Source: Chiloscyllium plagiosum
Lineage: Eukaryota
DNA: 62,413 nt
Reading direction: 5' to 3'
NCBI RefSeq assembly: GCF_004010195.1
Contig: NC_057717.1
Span: 103,481,026 to 103,543,438, forward strand
Made by a program: the position numbers and the translations under genes. Shown here one piece after another: positions 10,668 through 62,413 of the stretch. A model generated the notes under the pieces. The model saw only the letters and a list, made by a program, of their open reading frames with translations, was not told the origin of the DNA and did not search any database. Positions within the stretch are counted from its first letter, which is position 1. Every line of letters starts with the position of its first letter.

Positions 10668-11657
10668 CATAGATTCCCTACAGTGCAGAAAGAGGCCATT
10701 TGATCCATCATGTCTGCGACAATCCCACCACACCTAGTCCCCTATCCTATCCGTAGACACCGCAGACAAATTAGCATGGCCAATCCGCCCTAACCTGCAC
10801 ATCCCTGGGCACTATGGGGCAAATTAGCATGGTCAATTCACCTTAACTAGCACATCTCTGGGCCCTATGGGTAATTTAGCATGGCCAATCCACCTATACC
10901 TGCACATCCCTGGGCACTGTTGCAATTTAGCATGAGGTAAAAACAATGACTGCAGATGCTGGAAACCAGATTCTGGATTAGTGGTGCTGGAAGAGCACAA
11001 CAGTTCAGGCAGCATCCAAGGAGCTGCTGTGCTCTTCCAGCACCACTAATCCAGAATCTGGTTTCCAGCATCTGCAGTCATTGTTTTTACCTCGTTGATT
11101 TTAACCCTACTGCGAATCCTCTTGCAAGGATGCCTGCCTTGAAGAAGTTTTCCTCCTCTCTCTACAAGAATCTCAGGGAGTCCCTCTCCCACTGCAACTC
11201 CCAGGTCATTTCCTATGCTACTTTCTCCCCACCCCCACCCTCCTCTAGCTTATCTCTCCACGCTTCAGGCTGCCTTTATTCCTCATGAAGGACTTTTGCC
11301 TGAAACATCGATTTCGCTGCTCCTTGGATGCTGCCTGAACTGCTGTGCTCTTCCAGCACCACTAATCCAGAATGCAATTTAGCATGGCCAAACCACCTAA
11401 CCTGCACATCCTTGAAACCCAGCATTTCCCATGGCCAATCCGCCTAACCTGTATATCCCTGGGCACTATGGGTAATTTAGCATGGCCAATCCGCCCTTAC
11501 CTGCATATCCCTGTTACCCAATATTTCCCATGGCCAATCCACCCCGACCTGCACATCTTTGGTCTGAGAGGAAACCCACACGGACAATTGCCCAAAGGTG
11601 GGATTGAACCCAGGTTCCTGGCACTGTGAAGCAACAGCTGTAACCACTGAGCCACCC
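10668..11657 (-). mobile_element. HE1-like V-SINE with an internally tandem-amplified ~52-nt segment, interrupted by a PLE
   Basis: tRNA head at 11590-11657, CR1-like tail at 10668-10710, and about 7 copies of aattagcatggccaatccacctaacctgcacatccctgggcactatggg. Confidence 0.85.
10935..11372. mobile_element. Penelope-like element with inverted and direct pLTR pieces; 14-bp TSD
   Basis: TGCAATTTAGCATG at 10921-10934 and 11373-11386. Fold-back at 10935-11093 and a degenerate hammerhead at ~11281-11312. Confidence 0.85.
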
Positions 11658-21343: not shown

Positions 21344-21383
21344 GCAAACGTTTCGTCCCCTGGCTAGAGGACATCATCAGTGC
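21344..21383 (-). ncRNA. Minimal type-I hammerhead ribozyme motif (PLE pLTR), intact core
   Basis: GCA-CUGAUGA-U-GUCCUCU(AGCC)AGGGGAC-GAAA-C-GUU-UGC. A second copy at 21819-21858 has one helix II mismatch. Confidence 0.8.
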
Positions 21384-21477: not shown

Positions 21478-21781
21478 NNNNNNNNNNNNNNNNNNNNNNN
21501 NNNNNNNNNNNNNNNNNNNNNNNNNNNNNNNNNNNNNNNNNNNNNNNNNNNNNNNNNNNNNNNNNNNNNNNNNNNNNNNNNNNNNNNNNNNNNNNNNNNN
21601 NNNNNNNNNNNNNNNNNNNNNNNNNNNNNNNNNNNNNNNNNNNNNNNNNNNNNNNNNNNNNNNNNNNNNNNNNNNNNNNNNNNNNNNNNNNNNNNNNNNN
21701 NNNNNNNNNNNNNNNNNNNNNNNNNNNNNNNNNNNNNNNNNNNNNNNNNNNNNNNNNNNNNNNNNNNNNNNNNNNNNNNNN
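21478..21781. other. Assembly gap (304 N)
   Basis: Run of n characters. Confidence 1.
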
Positions 21782-21969
21782 TGTTGTGGTTCTGTTCGCC
21801 GAGCTGGGAGTTTTTGTTGCAAACGTTTCGTCCCCTGGCTAGGCGACATCATCAGTGCTTGGGAGCCTCCTGTGAAGCCAGGGGACGAAACGTTTGCAAC
21901 AAAAACTTCCAGCTCGGCGAACAGAACCACAACAACGAGCACCCGAGCTACAAATCTTCACACAAACTT

Positions 21970-24444: not shown

Positions 24445-24708
24445 TTCCAAGTCAATGTATATGTTAATAGAGTTGACTTGGATTCAATTTACCACCGTCT
24501 GAGAAAAATAACAGGAAATAATATCACTATAGGAAATGATGTCACCACAGGACATGACATCACCAACCCAAGGAAACCCAAACATATAAATAGAAAGCGG
24601 GCTACATCACCAGTGCTTCATTCGGAGATTCACTGAAGATGTTACCTAGTTTGGTGATGAAACATCTGAAAATGAACCTTCCAGCTCAGTGAGCAAACCT
24701 ACATCCAT
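24445..24708 (+). mobile_element. Penelope-like 3' end/pLTR with hammerhead motif at 24629-24670
   Basis: UUCA-CUGAAGA-U-GUUACC(UAGUUU)GGUGAU-GAAA-C-AUC-UGAA, and terminus aaccttccagctcagtgagcaaacctacatcc. Confidence 0.8.
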
Positions 24709-38734: not shown

Positions 38735-40300
38735 AATGTAAGAACTAGGAGCAGGAGTAGGCCATCTGGCCCTTCAAGCCTGCTCCAGCATTCAATACTC
38801 AGCTCCACTTACCCGCCCGCTCATCATTACCCTTAATTCCTTTACTGTTCAAAAATCTATTTTGCGTTAAAAACACTCAACCGAGGTAGCCTCAACTGCT
38901 TCACTGGGCAGAGAATTCCAGATTCACAACCCTTTGGGTCAAGAAGTTCCTCCTCAGCTCAGTCCTAAATCTGCTCCCCCCTTATTTTGAGGCTATGCCC
39001 CTGAGTTCTAGTGCCAACCTCCAGTGGAAACAACCTCCCTGCTTCCATTTTATTTATTCCTATCCTAATTGTATATGTTTCTGTAAGATCCAACCTTATT
39101 CTTCTAAATTCTAATAAGTATAGGCCCGGTCTACTCAATCTCTGCTCAAAAGCCAACCATCTCAATTGCAGAAACAACCTGGTGAACCTCCTCTGCATCC
39201 CATCCAGTGCCAGTACATCCTTTCTCAAGTAAGAAGACTAAAACTGCACACAGTACTCCAGGTGTGGCCTCACCCAGCACCTTATACAGCTGCAACATAA
39301 CCTCCCTGCTTTTAAACACAATCCCCCCCAGCAATGAAGACAATATTCCATTTGCCTTTTTAATTACCTGCTGCACCTGAAAGCCAACTTTTTGTGATTT
39401 TCGCACAAGGACACTCAGGTCTGTGCTGCAGTTTTTCACCATTTAAATAATAGCCCATTTTGCTGTTATTCCTGTCAAAATTGATGGCCTCTCATTTACC
39501 AGCATTGTACTCTATCTGCCAGACCCTTGCCCACTCCTTAACCTATCTATATCTCTCTGCAGACTTTCAGTGTCCTCTGCACACTTTGCTCTAACACTCA
39601 TTTTAGTGTCATCTACAAAGTTTGACACAATACCCTTGGTCCCCAACTCTAAATCATCTTTATTAATTCTAAACAATTGCAGTCCCAGCACTGATCCCTG
39701 AGGCACACCACTAACCACTAACCACCAAACAGAAAAACACACATTTATCCCCACTCTCTGTTTTCTGTTAGTTAAGCAATCCTCTATCCATGATAAGACA
39801 TTACCTGTAATGCTGTGAACCTTTATCTTATGCAGCAGCCTTTTATGCAGCTCCTTGTCGAATGCCTTCTGTAAATCCAGATACACCACATCTACTGGGT
39901 CCCCATTGTCCACTGTGCTCATAACATCCTCAAAGAATTCCAATACATTAGTTAAATATGACCTGCCTTTTATGAACCCATGCTGTGTCTGCCCAACAGG
40001 ACAATTGCTATCCAGATGTCTCACTATTTCTTTATTGATTATAGATTCAAGCATGATCCCCCCTACAGAAGTTAAGCTAATGGGCCTATAGTTACCTGTC
40101 TTTTGTCTACCTCCTTTTTTAAACAGTGATGTCATGTTTGCTGTTTTCCAAGCTGCCAGAACCACCCCAGAGTCCAAAGGATTTTGGTAAAATACAACAA
40201 GCACATTTACTATGTTTCCCCATCATCTCTTTTAGTACCCTGGGATACATTCCATCAGGGCCAGGAGACTTGTCTAACGTTAGCACCATTAGCTTGCTCA
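38735..40300 (-). pseudogene. CR1 LINE ORF2 reverse-transcriptase pseudogene (5' truncated, with 3' tail)
   Basis: Encodes WKTANMTSLFKKGGRQKTGNYRPISLTSV, QHGFIKGRSYLTNVLEFFED, YLDLQKAFDK, SGVPQGSVLG and FVDD, with frameshifts. Confidence 0.95.
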
Positions 40301-50718: not shown

Positions 50719-50828
50719 TTAAGCAGTACGGAGGATGATATGAATACCAGAATCTGTAAATACTGGGTTACTCATCTCTCCAATTTTCAGGGAGTATGTG
50801 GCTTCTTCAAAAGGTCTCTGCATTTGGC
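50719..50828 (-). CDS. PIN1: PIN1 final coding exon 4 (PPIase C-terminus, stop TAA)
   Basis: Translates (G)[35 protein letters not shown]. Acceptor is cattacAG. It is in frame with exon 3. Confidence 0.97.
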
Positions 50829-50936
50829 CTGTAATGCAAGCAAAGACAATAAAATAAATGCAGTAGAGACAATGTATGCCCTTTTCCAGCTGTGAGCCTT
50901 TCATATTAAAAAATACAGACACAGCAAGGTCTAAGA

Positions 50937-51103
50937 CAGTGCTTCCCAAACTTACTCATTCTGTGGCCCCATTTCAAAGCTTGAAAATTGTCACAACCCC
51001 TCAGTGAGAAGTTCTGGAGAGTAAGACAGCTGTTGTAAATTGGTCAGAGCTCACAGTGACAATTACTGCCTCACAGCTTGTAACCTCCACTTGAGAAGCC
51101 CTG
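50937..51103. mobile_element. hAT-Charlie/MER5-type MITE in PIN1 intron 3
   Basis: Imperfect TIRs CAGTGCTTCCCAA ... TTGAGAAGCCCTG. Confidence 0.6.
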
Positions 51104-51176: not shown

Positions 51177-51380
51177 TGGGAGAAAGTGAGGATTGCAGAT
51201 GCTGGAGATCAGAATCGAGAGTGTGCTGCTGGAAAAGCACAGCAGGTCAGGCAGTACCCGAGGAGCAGCCGAATCGACATTTCAGGCATGATTCCTGATG
51301 AATGGCTTATGCCCGAAATGTCAATTCTCCTGATCGTCGGATGCTGCCTGACCTGCTGTGCTTTTCCAGCGCCACACTCG
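51177..51380. mobile_element. Penelope-like fold-back element in PIN1 intron 3
   Basis: Inverted arms, motif CUGAUGA-A-UGGC(UUAU)GCCC-GAAA-UGUC at ~51295-51322, and a diverged TSD ataacaatataaac/ataacgatgtaaac. Confidence 0.85.
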
Positions 51381-51632: not shown

Positions 51633-51816
51633 AAAGGAGAAAGTGAGGACTGCAGATGCTGAAGATCAGAGCTGAAAATGTGTTGCTGGAAAAGCGCAGC
51701 AGGTCAGGCAGCATCCAAGGAGCATCCGGAGGAAGGGCTCATGCCCGAAACGTCGATTCTCCTGCTCCTTGGATGCTGCCTGACCTGCTGTGCTTTTCCA
51801 GTAACACATTTTCAGC
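51633..51816. mobile_element. Penelope-like fold-back element; 12-bp TSD
   Basis: TCTGTTATAATT at 51621-51632 and 51817-51828. Contains gggctcatgcccgaaacgtcg with a mutated CUGANGA. Confidence 0.88.
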
Positions 51817-52464
51817 TCTGTTATAATTGAAGTTTACCAAATGTGACACAAATGCTGTGTGAGCACTCTGGCTCAAATTTCATTGTCTGGAAGAGAGATG
51901 GTCAGCAACCAGGAAACATGAGTTTGTAGGGGAGAACAAAGACATTGACTTTATTCTTCCCAATACTGGATGGGATGCAATTGCTGCTTATCCACTATTG
52001 GACAGCAGGTAGGGTGCCTGACCAGTTAATAATGTGGAGTAGCTGAAAGGTAATGGTGTGCAACAATACTATTGTGAAGCTGTAGACTTTCCAACTGCTC
52101 CTAACCAATTAGGGGAGGAGGGGGTGGGAAGGAGGAAAGAGGGTGAGGCAGAGAACCAGAAGCAATTTCAACCAGGCAGCACAGGATAGAAAAGTAGTGC
52201 TGTGGGAGAGAAGTATGCATTGTGTATGGATGGGAGGGACAGTGGGGGGAATGTTGGGCAAAGAAACAGCATGAAATAAGTTTAACTGCTCCAACTACCA
52301 AAAGCATAATTGGCTGGGCCAACATAAACCCAAAATACTAACATACACTCGTTTTACACTTCTAGGTCCTCATTGAAAATATCCCTGATGCTTTTGCCTG
52401 CATCACAGCTACACGTGCATTATGAAAGAAAATAGATATATAGGATGTGCACACTCTGGGAAGA

Positions 52465-52692: not shown

Positions 52693-53208
52693 AAGGACCA
52701 AGTTTGTTCATGATGCTGGAACAGTGCACTGGAAGTTGCCAAGAGGGGAGAACAGCAAAAAAAAAAGTAGTAATTCAATCTGTCTAGATTAAATAGCCCA
52801 CAGATTCTTCAAAAGTGCCATCTTAATAAAGCTCCTCGAGGCTGGCTGCAATAACTTTCTTTTACTTTAAAACTTTATTTATTAAGGAAAAGGTAGCAGC
52901 CAGTTTGTTCGAAATTCAGTGACACAAAGTAATCATTGTGTAGGTGCTGGAAAAAGAGGGGTTTTGACTATTCAAGACAGGAGGTCGAGGGCTGCTAACC
53001 ACATGCAATCACATTTGAGAAAACACCCTCCTTGAATTTGATGCTCCTGAATTGGAATCTAGCATTATAAGATTATTATCGTTGTCATGCTGGCACAATA
53101 CAGAACACTTAACCCACTGGAGGCTGCTTAACAATACAATTGAAAAGAAATTTTTTTTAACAAAAAGATAGCCCAGCTTTATTAGTGATGGAATGGATCA
53201 TATCTTAC

Positions 53209-53319
53209 CTTTGCCAAAATAGCCCAGATCACCCCCTTCCTTTGCTGAGCTGCAATCACTGTATTTCGATGCTAAGTGTTCAAATGTTGCATCTCCAGAT
53301 TTGATCATTTGGATATATT
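53209..53319 (-). CDS. PIN1: PIN1 coding exon 3 (PPIase domain including catalytic Cys)
   Basis: Translates (E)[36 protein letters not shown](G). It is 111 nt, phase 1/1, with acceptor (TC)19-AG and donor AAG|GTAAGA. It is absent from the ORF track and was read manually. Confidence 0.97.

Positions 53320-53321
<2 letters not shown>

Positions 53322-53359
<38 letters not shown>
53322..53359 (-). repeat. (TC)19 microsatellite forming the polypyrimidine tract of PIN1 exon 3
   Basis: (GA)19 on the plus strand directly abuts the acceptor AG at 53320-53321. Confidence 0.95.
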
Positions 53360-54009: not shown

Positions 54010-56037
54010 TATGTGGAAACTCCAGTGGAGATACAAGCCCATTAATGTTAGGTACATCAGTCAGAGGGAGATTGATCTGGGTGGGTTGCTCTTTGGAGGG
54101 TCGGTGTGGACTTGTTGGGCCAAATGGCCCGTTTCCACACTGTAGGGAATCTAAAACAAAATCTCTCAAGTTTCACATTGACAGATGGCACGCCCACATT
54201 AGTGCATACCTTGTCATGAACTCAACATCTATCACAAGCAGAATTTCATTCGTAAGTGCCCAGTTTGCACACTACAGTTCTTCCACACAGCATTGCTGAA
54301 ATTAACAACTTGGGCATGTGAGAAGTTAACACCATTTCACACTATGCTAGTTCACTCACACTCAAATGTTCCATCATACACCATCTATTCAACCTCCACC
54401 AACTCATTCAGAAAAGGTGATTATATATTTTGAGTTAAACCTAAGTGTTCTGTACAGTAAGAACAGAATTCCTGGAAACATAGAGATCAGGCAGCAACTG
54501 ACAACAGAGATTACAAATAAAAATATTCGCTAAAGGTAGACCTAGATTCTGATGAAAGAATAAAATGTCAGAGCCCACTAATTCTCCAAATATTCTGATA
54601 TTAACTTATGCATTTCTAACTTGCTTCTACATGTATGATCCACAAAAATATTTTCTTTCCCACCAATTTACATTTGGGTTAATGCTATGCCAAAGTTACC
54701 AGTCACTGTGCATGGCAGGAATAAATACCTCTGCATGTCAGATCTTTAAAGTAACATTGGTACAAACTAGACATTCTATTAGTTCTGTAATGTTTAACCA
54801 ATTCCAGAACAAAGTCTCCTCTGTGATAGCAAAACAGAAGAAAAACAGACAGTTCTCAATCACCAAGACAATACAAATCACGCCATCTCAAAATCCCAAT
54901 GCTTCACCTAGAATCATGTGCAGCAAGTTCCTCACCTCACTAGAACCGACATACAGGAGAGTCTTGCAAATACCAAGTTTTACTGAGGACAGGGGTTGAG
55001 GTCCATTAGAAGATCAATCATCCCTAAGAACTTGCACATACCTTCCTTGTGCCTAGTTGCAGAGTAACACTGATACATTAAGGGGAGCTCTCTCAACTAT
55101 CTTGGACCAGTGGGCTTGAGAATAACCCAAAAGTGGAGGTTATGTATTATATTTAAAATAAGAAATTCACATGCAATTACAGTCACTATTACAATTTGTT
55201 TGCAACTTGGTGCACTAGTAAATATACTATATTCAAGTAAATAAAAATCAAAATTCAAAATTAGTTTAAATCTTTGATTTATGTTATACTTTCAAGGGAC
55301 AGTGACATGAATGGTCAGGCCAGCATTTGTTGCTAATCCCTCATAGTCCTCGGATGGAATGACTTGCTAAGCTATTTCAGGTATTCGTTCTGTACATTGC
55401 TGTGGGCGCAGAGTCACATGTAAGCCAGACCAGTTATGGACAACTGATTTCCTTCGCTAAAAAAGCACATTAATGAATCGAAAAGGTTTTTACAACAATC
55501 CAATGATAGTTGTCATGATCATCATTATAGAGTGTTGTTTTTAATCTCAGTTTTATTGAGTTTAGTTTCCTTCAACTCTCACTCTGTGATTTGAATCCCT
55601 GTCGTGAGAGCAATCAGCCTTCACCTCTGAAATACTAGCCCATTGACATTTCCACAAAAACTGTCTTTGTTATAAAACCTCAAAAACCGTTCTGAACTAA
55701 AACAAGCATGGTAGTGATTGGAACAAGGGCCAGGTGGATCTTTTATGATATCCTTGATTGGGGTTGTTGACCTCAGATAATCCGGGGCCCTGGATGACAT
55801 ATAAAAAGGGAGATTCAGAAGGTCTCCCAAGTCTAGGGAATGGCTTGGAACTGGCTGGTCAGAGCCTAAGTACTGTGCACGTGTAAATAAAGGGGGACTT
55901 GGTCACAGGGATGCTGGTCTCTATGCAGCTATTTCAAACACATTTATGTTCTCCTCTTCTGTACCAGTAAGATGTTTTAACAGTACAAAAAGAGTCTTTT
56001 GTGCTTTTGGAAAGGTGCACATGTGTCATCAATTTAC

Positions 56038-56238
56038 CATTTAATGTCTCTAGTGCCTCCTCTTTGCTGCGTGTGATCTCCTCCTGTCTCCATGAAGAAG
56101 GTCTGCGTGACTGGTTGTGCTTCACTAACAGGTGGGAACAGCGAACTCTGTCAGGCTCACCAGAACTGTAATTCCCCCCAGCTTTTGGACGCTCCCATTG
56201 ACTCCGATTAGTTGTATGATTGAAGAAGTAAATGCGAC
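56038..56238 (-). CDS. PIN1: PIN1 coding exon 2 (WW domain C-terminal part, linker, start of PPIase domain)
   Basis: Translates (G)[66 protein letters not shown]. Acceptor is tttgcAG (plus-strand ct at 56239-56240) and donor is G|GTAAAT (plus-strand ac at 56036-56037). The exon is 201 nt, phase 1/1, matching vertebrate PIN1 exon structure. Confidence 0.97.
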
Positions 56239-56539
56239 CTGCAAAAGAAACATAAAATGCCATTTGAGACATCAACGCAAGCTAATCAATCAAGAACACA
56301 CCTTGCAGAACCTGACTTAAATAGTTTCTCCTTCCTTACTCCACTCCTGAAGAAATGGGGAGAACGATTCTGAAGTCTCAGATGCAGTTCCATGGGTTGC
56401 TGCCACATCATTCACTTCCAAAATTCACATTACAACAACTTGAATACTTACAATACAGCAATGGCTACATTTTGAAAGAAATGCAAAAGCATGGCATTAG
56501 AAAAATAAGATTACAACTGGATTTTTAAAAGTTTATCAA

Positions 56540-59700: not shown

Positions 59701-60378
59701 GAGTGAACAGCCATGCACCATAATATTAAGCAATGAATTCAAAATGCAAAAAGGCACGTCCATTCATCACTCATTTATAGTCAAATGTGTTGAAATAATT
59801 AAAGCCAGGTTAAGATTACAACTGCAATAGGCTGAGATTTTCATAATAATAGAAAGTTCTGGAATACATTTGGGTCAGGCAGGACCCTGTGGAGAAACAG
59901 ATAAGTTAATGTTTCAGGTCAGTAGCTTTGAAAGAAAGATCATTATTGAAAACTTCAATTGTTCTTCCTTTGTGATCTCCAGCATAAGAACAATTATTTC
60001 AAAGACTAAGATATCATTCAGCAATATCATCATTAACACTCATTATTTTATTCTCAGATGAAGGTCACAGGGCAGTTTCACTAACTAAGAGTAAGATCTA
60101 GCACTTTAGTACTTCCAGTCATGAACCACGAGAAACATGTTTAATGGGGCTACCTTATTTTGAATAATTCAAAAGATTGCAGGTACTTGGCAGCATCTAT
60201 CTTCAGAGGATCTTAAATGTACCAAATCTACCCCAGTGATTCAGCTAGAAAATTAACAACCATGCAGATGCGCCCATATTGCCAACCAGTCAGCAGTCTT
60301 CTCAGGCAGTATAATAGTTTTTTGCAAGGTATGTGATGGTTTGTAGCTCAGGTTGAGGTTTAGGATGAAGGTTTGATA

Positions 60379-60420
60379 TCCAGATGTTTCATTACCTGGC
60401 TAGGTAACATCATCAGTGGA
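60379..60420 (-). ncRNA. Minimal hammerhead motif on the PIN1 sense strand (inverted twin at 61089-61128 on plus)
   Basis: UCCA-CUGAUGA-U-GUUACCU(AGCC)AGGUAAU-GAAA-C-AUC-UGGA. Helix III is ACAU rather than ACGU. Confidence 0.7.
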
Positions 60421-60491
60421 GAAAGTGAGGTCTGCAGATGCTGGAGATCAAAGTTGAAACTTTATTGCTGGAACAGCACAGCAGGTCAGGA

Positions 60492-60527
60492 ATTCCTGAA
60501 GAAGGGCCTGTGCCCGAAACGTCGAAT
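60492..60527 (+). ncRNA. Minimal type-I hammerhead ribozyme motif, fully intact core
   Basis: AUUC-CUGAAGA-A-GGGC(CUGU)GCCC-GAAA-C-GUC-GAAU, with palindromic ACGU at helix III. Confidence 0.82.
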
Positions 60528-60544
60528 CTCCTGTTCCCTGGATG

Positions 60545-60980
60545 GCATGTCTTTGCTTAGCCTGTTCTCGGATAGATGTGTTGTCCCAGTCGAAATGGTG
60601 GTTTTTTTAATCCGTGTGTAGGGCTACGAGGGAGAAAGGGTAGTGTCTTTTTTGTGGCTAGCTAATGTTCATGTATCCTCGTGGCTAACTTTCTTCCTGT
60701 TTGTCCTACGTAGTGTTTGTGGCAGTCCTTGCATGGAATTTTGTAGATGACGTTGGTTTTGTCCATGGGTTGTACTGGGTCTTTTAAGTTTGTTAGTTTT
60801 TGTTTGAGAGTGTTGGTGGGTTTGTGTGCTACTAGGATTCCAAGGGGTCATAGTAGTCTGGCTTTCATTTCTGAAACTTCTTTGATGTATGTTAAGGTGG
60901 TTAGGGTTCCTGGCTGTGTTTGGTCTGCTTGTCGTGGTTTGTTCTTGAGGAATCTGCGGACTGTATTTTTTGAGTATCCG
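60545..60980 (-). pseudogene. PLE GIY-YIG endonuclease remnant
   Basis: Reads ...EMKARLL*PLGILVAHKPTNTLKQKLTNLKDPVQPMDKTNVIYKIPCKDCHKHYVGQTGRKLATRIHEH*LATKRH...HHFDWDNTSI, with in-frame stops. Confidence 0.92.
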
Positions 60981-61199
60981 CAAGAAAACGAACAGGAAAT
61001 GACATCGCCACAAACCCCAGGAACCCCATCCAGGACAAACTCATAAATAGAAAGCAGGAGACAACAGCTTCGCTTCACTTGGAGGTCGCCACTGATGATG
61101 TTACCTAGCCAGGTAATGAAACATCTGGATAGCAAACCTACAGCTCAGCGAGCAAACCTATACTCTAAAGTATAATAGTTGCCTGTCCTTTACATGTAT

Positions 61200-61292
61200 T
61201 TCTTGCACACTGTCCTGATGAGTGCAAGTCAAAAAGCTTTCACAGAATATGCCTCTTTTCAGCAATACCCAAGTTCTGGACCATCAAACCAC
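61200..61292 (+). mobile_element. Fourth PLE terminus family with decayed hammerhead
   Basis: ctgtc-CTGATGA-gtgcaagtc-AAAA-agctttc-acag, with GAAA mutated. Confidence 0.55.
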
Positions 61293-62057
61293 ACAGTTCT
61301 AGGTAAGGTTGCAAATGTGTGGAACGGGTGCATTTTCTATTGTCTTCAAGGCTGAGTTAACTGAACAGGAAAGAAAAACAGTGGACTTCCGCTTCCGTGA
61401 ACCCTACAAACAGAATAACAATTTTTGTTTTGGGAGGATGGGGGAAAGGAAAGTAGCTTGGAAAAGAGATTTGGTCATATTCAACAACATAATGCTGATG
61501 AGACTTCAACTAAGGCAGATAAAATCAAAGTAAAGTTGTAGAGAACCTTTTTCTCAATTTTCACGGTCAGAGAAAGCCAGAATTCACAAAGAAGAGAGCA
61601 ATTTCAATTTGTGTTCTGGGTAGTTGGTAACAGAGTGGAAGAAGAGATAGTAAGGGGTTAGTCAGATTGGTTGAAAGCACCTGTTTCAGCATTCCCCTGT
61701 CTGACAAACATCTAATCTCTCAACATTTCGAATGGTACATTATACAAGACAACTTTTGAGTGGGTGGGTTGGAGGCATGAAATCACTTCGACTCTGCATC
61801 CTTGTTGTCATAGTAACTGCAAAGCTTCAAAATATAAATGGAAAACTACAGCCAGAGAAATGTGGAAGGGAAGAAAACAAGACATCACAAGGCAGACTTA
61901 ACACAGAAAATGCTAGATGGAACCTGAACTCAGTTAAAAATTGTGAGGAGTTTGATAAAGGATGACCATTTCCACAATTTGCAGAATCACTATCCAGGGA
62001 TAACCAATTCAAGCAATCAGCAAAAGCATGATAAAAGTGGTAGTGCTTCCTAATGTT

Positions 62058-62367
62058 ATGGTACGTTTAATTGTAGAATTTATATAAAGTATGGCTCGCG
62101 CCCAGTGTTTGGAAAATCTCACGGCAGCAGGAGTGATGGCACAAACAATTACAGGAACGGATGGGGGAGGGGAGGGAAGGAGAGGAAAGGGAAGGGAACG
62201 GTTGTGGGGGGCATGGTACGTTTAATTGTAGAATTTATATAAAGTATGGCTCGCGCCCAGTGTTTGGAAAATCTCACGGCAGCAGGAGTGATGGCACAAA
62301 CAATTACAGGAACGGATGGGGGAGGGGAGGGAAGGAGAGGAAAGGGAAGGGAACGGTTGTGGGGGGC
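62058..62367. repeat. Exact 155-bp tandem duplication with G-rich tract near the 5' end of PIN1 intron 1
   Basis: 62058-62212 is identical to 62213-62367. Confidence 0.95.
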
Positions 62368-62413
62368 AAGAGGAGAGGAAGGGGATGGTGGTGGTGAGGA
62401 GGGCGAGAGGAGA

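Follow-up and report, generated by a model that had tools for sequence, protein, structure and literature searches.

How does one intron come to hold several hammerhead ribozyme motifs, on both strands and within about 1 kb, and do such motifs matter to the gene around them? The question is raised by a stretch of 62,413 nucleotides from the genome of Chiloscyllium plagiosum (NCBI RefSeq assembly GCF_004010195.1, contig NC_057717.1, positions 103,481,026 to 103,543,438 of the forward strand), which as a whole is called the window below, and in which all positions are counted from the first letter. A first-pass annotation had described here, from the letters alone, a cluster of four hammerhead motifs belonging to three families of Penelope-like elements (PLEs), all in intron 1 of a PIN1-type gene, and had suggested that selection against self-cleavage in a housekeeping intron had shaped it. 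We find three hammerheads in the cluster, and consider it very probable that they are what two retrotransposition events left behind in this intron of the gene, which lies on the minus strand. The argument goes from the motifs and the gene to the two elements, then to the order in which they arrived, and finally to what the motifs may or may not do to their host.

Hammerhead motifs and the gene that holds them

The window was scanned on both strands with a descriptor purpose-built for the minimal type I hammerhead: CTGANGA with zero or one extra base after it, a helix II of at least 3 bp, GAAA, a helix III of one pair with a loop of 2-4 nt, T followed by a non-G base, and a helix I of at least 3 or at least 4 bp, depending on the setting. 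As a control for chance, the same descriptor was applied to 200 first-order Markov shuffles of the window. With a helix I of at least 4 bp, there are 3 motifs in the window (shuffle mean 0.02), and with a helix I of at least 3 bp there are 6 (shuffle mean 0.065). Because the shuffle means are as low as this, the hammerhead motifs of the window are not a matter of chance. All 6 motifs require the extra base after A9. The motifs and exons that the argument needs are as follows.

60492-60527, plus strand (antisense to PIN1): intact minimal hammerhead, from the descriptor scan
60379-60420, minus strand (sense of PIN1): minimal hammerhead with ACAU in helix III, from the descriptor scan
61089-61128, plus strand (antisense to PIN1): hammerhead of an inverted tail, also with ACAU, from the scan at the 3-bp setting
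61210-61245, plus strand: lone CTGATGA in an unrelated old repeat, outside the hammerhead system
50722-50955, minus strand: PIN1 exon 4 (open frame), from its exon peptide
53201-53359, minus strand: PIN1 exon 3 (open frame), from its exon peptide
55937-56281, minus strand: PIN1 exon 2 (open frame), from its exon peptide

The first three motifs have the full core (CUGANGA, helix II, GAAA, a one-pair helix III with a 2-nt loop, UH and a helix I of 3-4 bp), and for these three the scan agrees to the base with the positions given in the first-pass annotation. The intact motif is made up of CUGAAGA, one unpaired A, a 4-bp helix II, GAAA, the palindrome ACGU, the triplet GUC and a 4-bp helix I, with the predicted cleavage site after the C at 60523; folded alone, this 36-mer has the hammerhead secondary structure as its minimum-energy fold (-7.1 kcal/mol). 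The minus-strand motif has a 4-bp helix I, a 7-bp helix II and one unpaired U after A9 (predicted cleavage site after the C at 60383), and the motif at 61089-61128 has a 3-bp helix I (predicted cleavage site after the C at 61125). These last two belong to the older of the two elements, called family A below. As the first pair of helix II, the intact motif has G10.1-C11.1; the two window copies of family A have G.U, as do 34 out of 46 aligned copies of the family. Helix III is the palindromic ACGU in the intact motif and the non-palindromic ACAU in both window copies of family A; these letters, and the GUC of the intact motif, had been read correctly at first pass.

The fourth motif, described earlier as a decayed hammerhead at 61210-61245 and assigned to an adjacent third Penelope family, does not survive inspection. 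It consists of the heptamer CTGATGA only, which is one of 56 CTGANGA sites in the window, with no GAAA box and no hammerhead topology: its sole stem encloses the heptamer rather than coming after it. The motif lies in an old dispersed repeat (about 61187-61293; 78-88% identity, 275 first-look candidates), and both relatives of this repeat that we compared have different letters at the position of the heptamer. There is no third hammerhead-bearing Penelope family next to the other two.

The gene context is directly observed. Pfam finds WW and Rotamase domains on the PIN1 frames (the Rotamase match is on the minus strand at 53198-53323), and these matches and the exon peptides agree with the earlier placement of the cluster in intron 1 of a minus-strand gene. 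A PIN1-type exon 1 (MAEEEPLPPGWEKRMSRKSG) is found about 5.7 kb past the window end (locus L061). As exons 4 to 2 lie in the window and exon 1 lies beyond its end, the cluster is in intron 1 and the minus strand is the strand of the pre-mRNA; the copy at 60379-60420 is therefore in the sense of PIN1 and the intact copy antisense to it, just as had been proposed.

Hammerheads of related families are seen elsewhere in the window. Two of them, at 21344-21383 and 21819-21858 (both on the minus strand), lie in direct orientation 475 bp apart, with ACGU intact and a GUU triplet, and a run of 304 N bases (21478-21781) stands between them. Compared by eye with family A, they show paired changes at one position of helix I and two of helix II; within the family, copies are too alike for covariation, and a scan that is itself based on pairing would bias any formal count. 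A third related variant is represented by a minimal hammerhead at 24629-24670 (plus strand), with CUGAAGA, a 6-bp helix II and ACAU.

Two Penelope-like elements and their nesting

Three hammerheads within 1 kb become easier to read once the sequence around them is divided into its parts, in which pLTR stands for the pseudo-long terminal repeat of a PLE.

60308-60319, no strand: left target-site duplication (TSD), AGTATAATAGTT, exact direct repeat
60320-60422, minus strand (sense of the element and of PIN1): family A 3' tail with hammerhead, matching the tails of other genomic copies
60418-60544, plus strand: nested 127-bp pLTR fragment of a second PLE, from its identity to genomic copies; its parts are an inverted 27-nt tail (60418-60445), an inverted 44-nt arm (60446-60489) and a sense piece with the hammerhead (60490-60544)
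60544-60980, minus strand: decayed C-terminal frame of family A including the GIY-YIG region, from tblastn
60983-61168, plus strand: inverted family A tail, the 5' end of the truncated element, matching other tails in the opposite orientation
61169-61180, no strand: right TSD, AGTATAATAGTT, exact direct repeat

The boundaries of the first element are plain: the 12-bp exact duplication brackets an insert of 849 bp, in line with the earlier description of a TSD-bounded PLE. Searching the genome with this insert gave 5,543 first-look candidates, of which 40 were scored; the insert is 5-10% diverged from its relatives, and its family A region has 94-95% DNA identity to copies such as the one at locus L008. 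In L008, as in other intact-looking copies, the hammerhead-bearing tail is downstream of the frame and in sense. The intact 297-residue frame of L008 led to two proteins, P0004 and P0009, on each of which Pfam finds both RVT_1 and GIY-YIG, and tblastn aligns these proteins onto 60979-60544 of the minus strand (E 9e-33 and 2e-22, respectively), with in-frame stops and a frame change. Because the minus-strand frame aligns with proteins that carry RVT_1 and GIY-YIG, family A is a canonical endonuclease-bearing PLE, 5'-truncated here and inserted in the sense of PIN1.

The usual family A copy has the part corresponding to 60543-60980, then about 80 bp, then the sequence of 60983-61168, all in the same sense. 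The window copy has tails at both ends and in opposite orientation, a form that we also found at six further loci (L002-L007). It has two arms of 57 nt each (60366-60422 and 61086-61142), with a complementarity of 95% and differences at 3 out of 57 positions. Inverted arms of this kind are known: the excerpts of Craig et al. 2021 (PMC8557442) considered here describe PLEs as often 5'-truncated, with an inverted 5'-truncated copy forming flanking inverted repeats, and mention a tail of 30-40 bp, a hammerhead in the pLTR and partial tandems.

The second element is represented by the 127-bp piece inside family A, where the first-pass annotation had rightly placed a nested second PLE. Its links to other genomic copies are observed directly: it is identical to present-day copies of a young family at 127 out of 127 positions, and among 39 other places scored with a 125-base query, 37 are recorded at 100% identity and 3 at 99%. 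A 67-mer that links the 3' side of the hammerhead with the 44-nt arm and the 27-nt tail has 8,172 exact copies in the genome (4,071 forward and 4,101 reverse), versus 46 exact copies of the junction seen in the window, in which the hammerhead is on the other strand beside arm and tail. In the first ten copies of the 67-mer on contig 1, the module is at the 3' end of a retroelement with variable 5' truncation points; inverted 5' hairpins with differing junctions are present in three out of these ten, and target duplications in several.

What follows the module is also informative. About 38 nt past the tail there is the ATG of a frame beginning with MPSLKK (seen in a young array at locus L086 and in an old, diverged copy at 10940-11370 of the window), which puts the hammerhead of the second family about 110 nt upstream of a PLE-type frame start. 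A frame of the MPSLKK type is contained in the gene model P0015, and an exhaustive search with P0015 matches the N-terminal 150-210 residues of four proteins of 880-950 residues (P0049, P0063, P0081 and P0089), all with a C-terminal GIY-YIG domain and two out of four with RVT_1; a word-based search with a 52-residue piece found a single protein with no named domain. Considering the 8,172 versus 46 copies, the position at 3' ends, the frame that follows and the GIY-YIG relatives, we take the module to be the pLTR of another PLE, which is very young and very abundant, with the hammerhead in the sense of the element.

The opposite polarity has also to be considered, since there are copies, 100% identical over 1.6 kb, in which the module is joined to an open frame on the opposite strand. 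We take this frame to be the C-terminus of a CR1-type open reading frame 2 (ORF2), a label that no tool match confirms, and on such a basis the intact motif could be the antisense strand of a hairpin in the 3' untranslated region of a CR1-like long interspersed nuclear element (LINE). We judge this explanation refuted, with next to no probability left to it: in TSD-bounded units (L062 and L066), what lies as cargo between two modules is no more than a 5'-truncated piece of the CR1-like frame, about 125 residues long, and Pfam assigns the cargo fragment to no family, with matches at chance level only. The imbalance of copy numbers given above (module in sense at the 3' end versus antisense junction) and the PLE-type reading frame after the module speak for the second PLE as well.

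Several further copies of the second family deserve description in their own right. The old copy at 10940-11370 (plus strand) is diverged, has the order arm, tail, about 38 nt and ATG of the frame MPALKKFSSSLYK, and is followed by a decayed hammerhead region at 11278-11358; this copy shows the junction between terminal repeat and frame to be ancient. Intron 3 of PIN1 contains older palindromic modules of the second family at 51179-51370 and 51636-51823, in which both arms have the hammerhead region or its complement, and in which one core is kept with GAAAUGUC at 51295-51322 (plus strand). Locus L086 (G000:C1:26521800-26522850) is a single insertion inside a 14-bp target duplication. One of its units is truncated, two of 224 bp follow each other head to tail, and in the last the spacer is longer (about 166 nt); each of the full units has a hammerhead, an arm, a tail and the start of the PLE frame, i.e. 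a retrozyme-like architecture, and a spacing of 224 bp is also found among the copies of the 67-mer. The composite units mentioned above (L062, 102-1868; L066, 25-2831) are bounded by TSDs and have two hammerhead modules around some 1.5-2.3 kb of unrelated repeat debris, including an opposite-strand fragment that resembles the end of a LINE ORF2. In a comparison of 11 loci, most showed such composites at 100% identity over 1.5-1.6 kb. In loci L063 and L068-L074, long N runs directly adjoin the composite repeat and make the open-frame lengths of these copies unreliable. PLE terminal repeats appear to mobilise cargo.

The nesting of the second element in the first is seen directly, and a comparison with L008 shows what it replaced: about 182 bp of family A between frame and tail are exchanged for the 127-bp piece, and no such piece is found at this place in any of the 29 other family A loci compared. 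Because the piece is undiverged, family A is 5-10% diverged and the 29 other loci are without the piece, a later nested insertion with loss of target sequence is the simplest account. The order of events that we infer would then be the following. A 5'-truncated family A element would have inserted in the orientation of PIN1, making the 12-bp target duplication, and its 5' end would, in the manner common among PLEs, have received an inverted copy of its own 3' tail, so that the hammerhead of the tail came to be present twice, on opposite strands and about 700 bp apart. The ACAU of both family A copies is a CpG transition, either taken over from the source copy or acquired later. At a later time, a 127-bp pLTR fragment of the young PLE would have landed between the frame and the tail of family A with loss of about 185 bp, bringing with it the intact hammerhead on the strand opposite to PIN1.

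The whole 849-bp insert might instead be one chimeric copy, made when family A reverse transcription switched to the RNA of the second family and back, so that nothing was ever nested. Indeed, no separate target duplication belongs to the 127-bp piece, which takes the place of family A sequence instead of being added to it, its inner junction shows 1-2 bases of microhomology, and PLE enzymes can begin within the template and extend both strands (Frangieh et al. 2024, PMC11167929, in the excerpts considered). At the rate seen in the arms, about three changes are expected in 127 bp, and the piece has none; together with the divergence of family A from its relatives and the absence of the piece from all 29 loci, this makes one chimeric copy distinctly improbable, and we retain the later nested insertion.

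Two RNA runs were compared with the stretch, the first of them (X19) at about 2% of the run. Reads of X19 lie on the young repeat in both directions, and 303 out of 313 match the stretch only in part and hence come from other copies; the unique flanks have zero depth. No reads of the second run (X20) were placed on the stretch. The young family is transcribed somewhere, and these reads say nothing firm about transcription of the PIN1 intron or cleavage at this locus. The 44-nt arm (60446-60489) contains AATAAA, and 33 X19 reads have a T run just before 60452; these may be polyadenylated family transcripts that end in the arm, or a library artefact.

Several results weigh against the account given here. 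For the ribozymes, the search with Rfam hammerhead models that had been recommended was run and was negative: there were 0 matches at the gathering score in the whole window, and no hammerhead family matched at E <=10 on 2001 or 191 bases either. The Rfam families (types I, II and III, HH9 and HH10) have the same catalytic core letters as the window motifs, but match them at no threshold tried, and helix III of the window motifs is a single pair; the hammerhead call rests on our own descriptor and the published description of the class, not on a curated model. Among the reads of X19, which are almost all from other copies, there is no pile of starts or ends at about 2% of the run. For the first element, Pfam finds no GIY-YIG on the decayed frame of the window or on the frame of L008, and the assignment of family A to the PLEs draws on its homologues. 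For the second, a word-based search with the N-terminal 175 residues found no long relative (the exhaustive search then did), and among the genomic copies read there was no full-length copy in which the frame is joined to reverse transcriptase and endonuclease. Insertions of this family face outward at both ends; the 27-nt tail is complete at one end, and the other is cut 37-44 nt into the arm, in agreement with the tail and the extension of both strands described for PLEs. The window piece has the inverted tail and arm, then the sense hammerhead, and is without the outer arm, which is usually kept in the other 45 copies with the same junction; it is also without a separate target duplication, and either one chimeric insertion or a deletion at a later time may be the cause.

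Does the host gene shape the motifs?

In their own elements, pLTR hammerheads are thought to process tandem element transcripts as dimers. Inside PIN1, only one copy is in the sense of the pre-mRNA, and the first-pass annotation had supposed that this copy is neutralised in two ways, by loss of the ACGU palindrome and by pairing with its inverted twin. Both observations stand. Helix III of the sense copy does read ACAU. When the insert RNA is folded to its minimum energy, the sense motif has 41 out of 42 nt paired with the complement of its inverted twin, and the two arms on their own form a duplex of -93 kcal/mol. Selection as the cause of either is not supported.

For the palindrome, we tallied the CpG in 40 other family A tails, drawn from the best matches to the insert: ACGUC is found in 27, CG is kept otherwise in 2, CA is found in 4, TG in 4 and another form in 1, and the site is absent in 2. 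Of 38 other copies in which the site is present, 9 have thus lost the CpG, and it is lost in the antisense twin as well, which has the same ACAU, so that the change is not specific to the transcribed strand. By this comparison, ACGU to ACAU is ordinary CpG decay. The inverted twin is a by-product of the insertion mechanism, of a kind standard for PLEs (Craig et al. 2021, PMC8557442, in the excerpts considered). Even the premise that one sense copy threatens the pre-mRNA is weak, because in vitro cleavage was reported to be undetectable for minimal hammerheads as monomers and low for dimers (Cervera and De la Pena 2014, PMC4209133).

That the sense hammerhead was nevertheless neutralised under selection, with the intact motif tolerated only as antisense, is very unlikely. 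The orientations of the motifs are as this explanation requires, the sole sense copy has a broken palindrome and pairs fully with its twin in the fold described above, and a mild depletion of hammerhead-bearing retrozymes in introns is reported for Xenopus in the part of a 2026 preprint on vertebrate retrozymes considered here (10.64898/2026.07.22.740005). The same part of that preprint, however, contains no analysis by strand and places 43.9% of Xenopus tropicalis retrozyme copies in introns, and the span of PIN1, with one sense and three antisense core-bearing motifs, offers too few for statistics. Taken with the shared ACAU, the frequent loss of this CpG in the family, the ordinary origin of the twin and the inactivity of monomers in vitro, the selection hypothesis is unsupported and mostly unnecessary.

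It is most likely that all three motifs at the locus are inert passengers, an inactivity that we infer from their structure and strand. The sense copy is likely to be inert because it stands alone as a monomer, the palindrome of its helix III is broken and a perfect antisense partner lies upstream, and the other two because they would be made from an antisense transcript only. In a broader form of the idea, the pattern in PIN1 would be one case of a genome-wide strand filter on ribozyme activity rather than on insertion, by which intact Penelope hammerheads would be selectively lost or masked on the sense strand of introns in highly expressed genes. We regard such a filter as a long shot.

Two further features of the window may be mentioned. 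Near the window end (62040-62375, plus strand), there are two tandem copies of a block that runs from ggtacgtttaattgtagaattt to a G-rich end and measures about 150 bp, and at 39515-40222 (minus strand) there is an open frame of 236 residues with an RVT_1 match (E 6e-16), from a different retroelement.

Relation to known hammerhead elements

The locus is an ordinary example of the class described in 2014 as the minimal hammerheads of metazoan PLEs, which were found with relaxed structure descriptors (Cervera and De la Pena 2014, PMC4209133). In that class, one base after A9 is unpaired, helix II is long and has G10.1-C11.1, helix I is short, and helix III is palindromic, in that the palindromic positions 15.2-16.2 or loop 3 allow a dimeric helix III; pairs of motifs on opposite strands were reported 100-700 bp apart. 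The window motifs, known here from their letters alone, share the core boxes and the one unpaired base between A9 and helix II, the 7-bp helix II (in family A), the helix I of 3-4 bp, the one-pair helix III with the ACGU palindrome (in the intact motif and most family A copies), the location in terminal repeats in the sense of the element (for both families), the occurrence both singly and in pairs that lie on opposite strands at a distance of a few hundred bp, and massive copy numbers. They differ in the decayed palindrome ACAU in two out of three window copies, in the helix II of family A, which starts with G.U and not G-C, and in the helix II of the intact motif, which is short (4 bp).

A second comparison is with canonical insertions of endonuclease-bearing PLEs, for which we refer to the excerpts of PMC8557442 and PMC11167929 considered above. 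Family A has the 5' truncation, the inverted 5' tail and the target duplication of such insertions; the second family has the two outward-facing ends (one with the full tail, the other cut within the arm), the tandem units, and the 3' end just upstream of the frame start. The difference is that the second family is known here mostly from copies that consist of the terminal repeat only.

Animal non-LTR retrozymes, where LTR stands for long terminal repeat, are tandem hammerhead units derived from PLE terminal repeats, according to the part of Cervera and De la Pena 2020 (PMC7229834) considered. As far as that source and the part considered of a preprint by Li et al. 2026 go, the second family resembles them in its 224-bp head-to-tail arrays inside one TSD (L086), whereas its copy in the window is a single fragment with no tandem unit at the locus.

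The locus is a worked case of how the minimal hammerheads of PLEs escape Rfam models, and of how what looks like a cluster of ribozymes may resolve into nested insertions. The more than 8,000 near-identical young copies would also give a test of the intron strand filter unusual power. If the filter existed, we would have in it the first sign that, weak as they are, these ribozymes cleave in vivo at a frequency that host genes feel.

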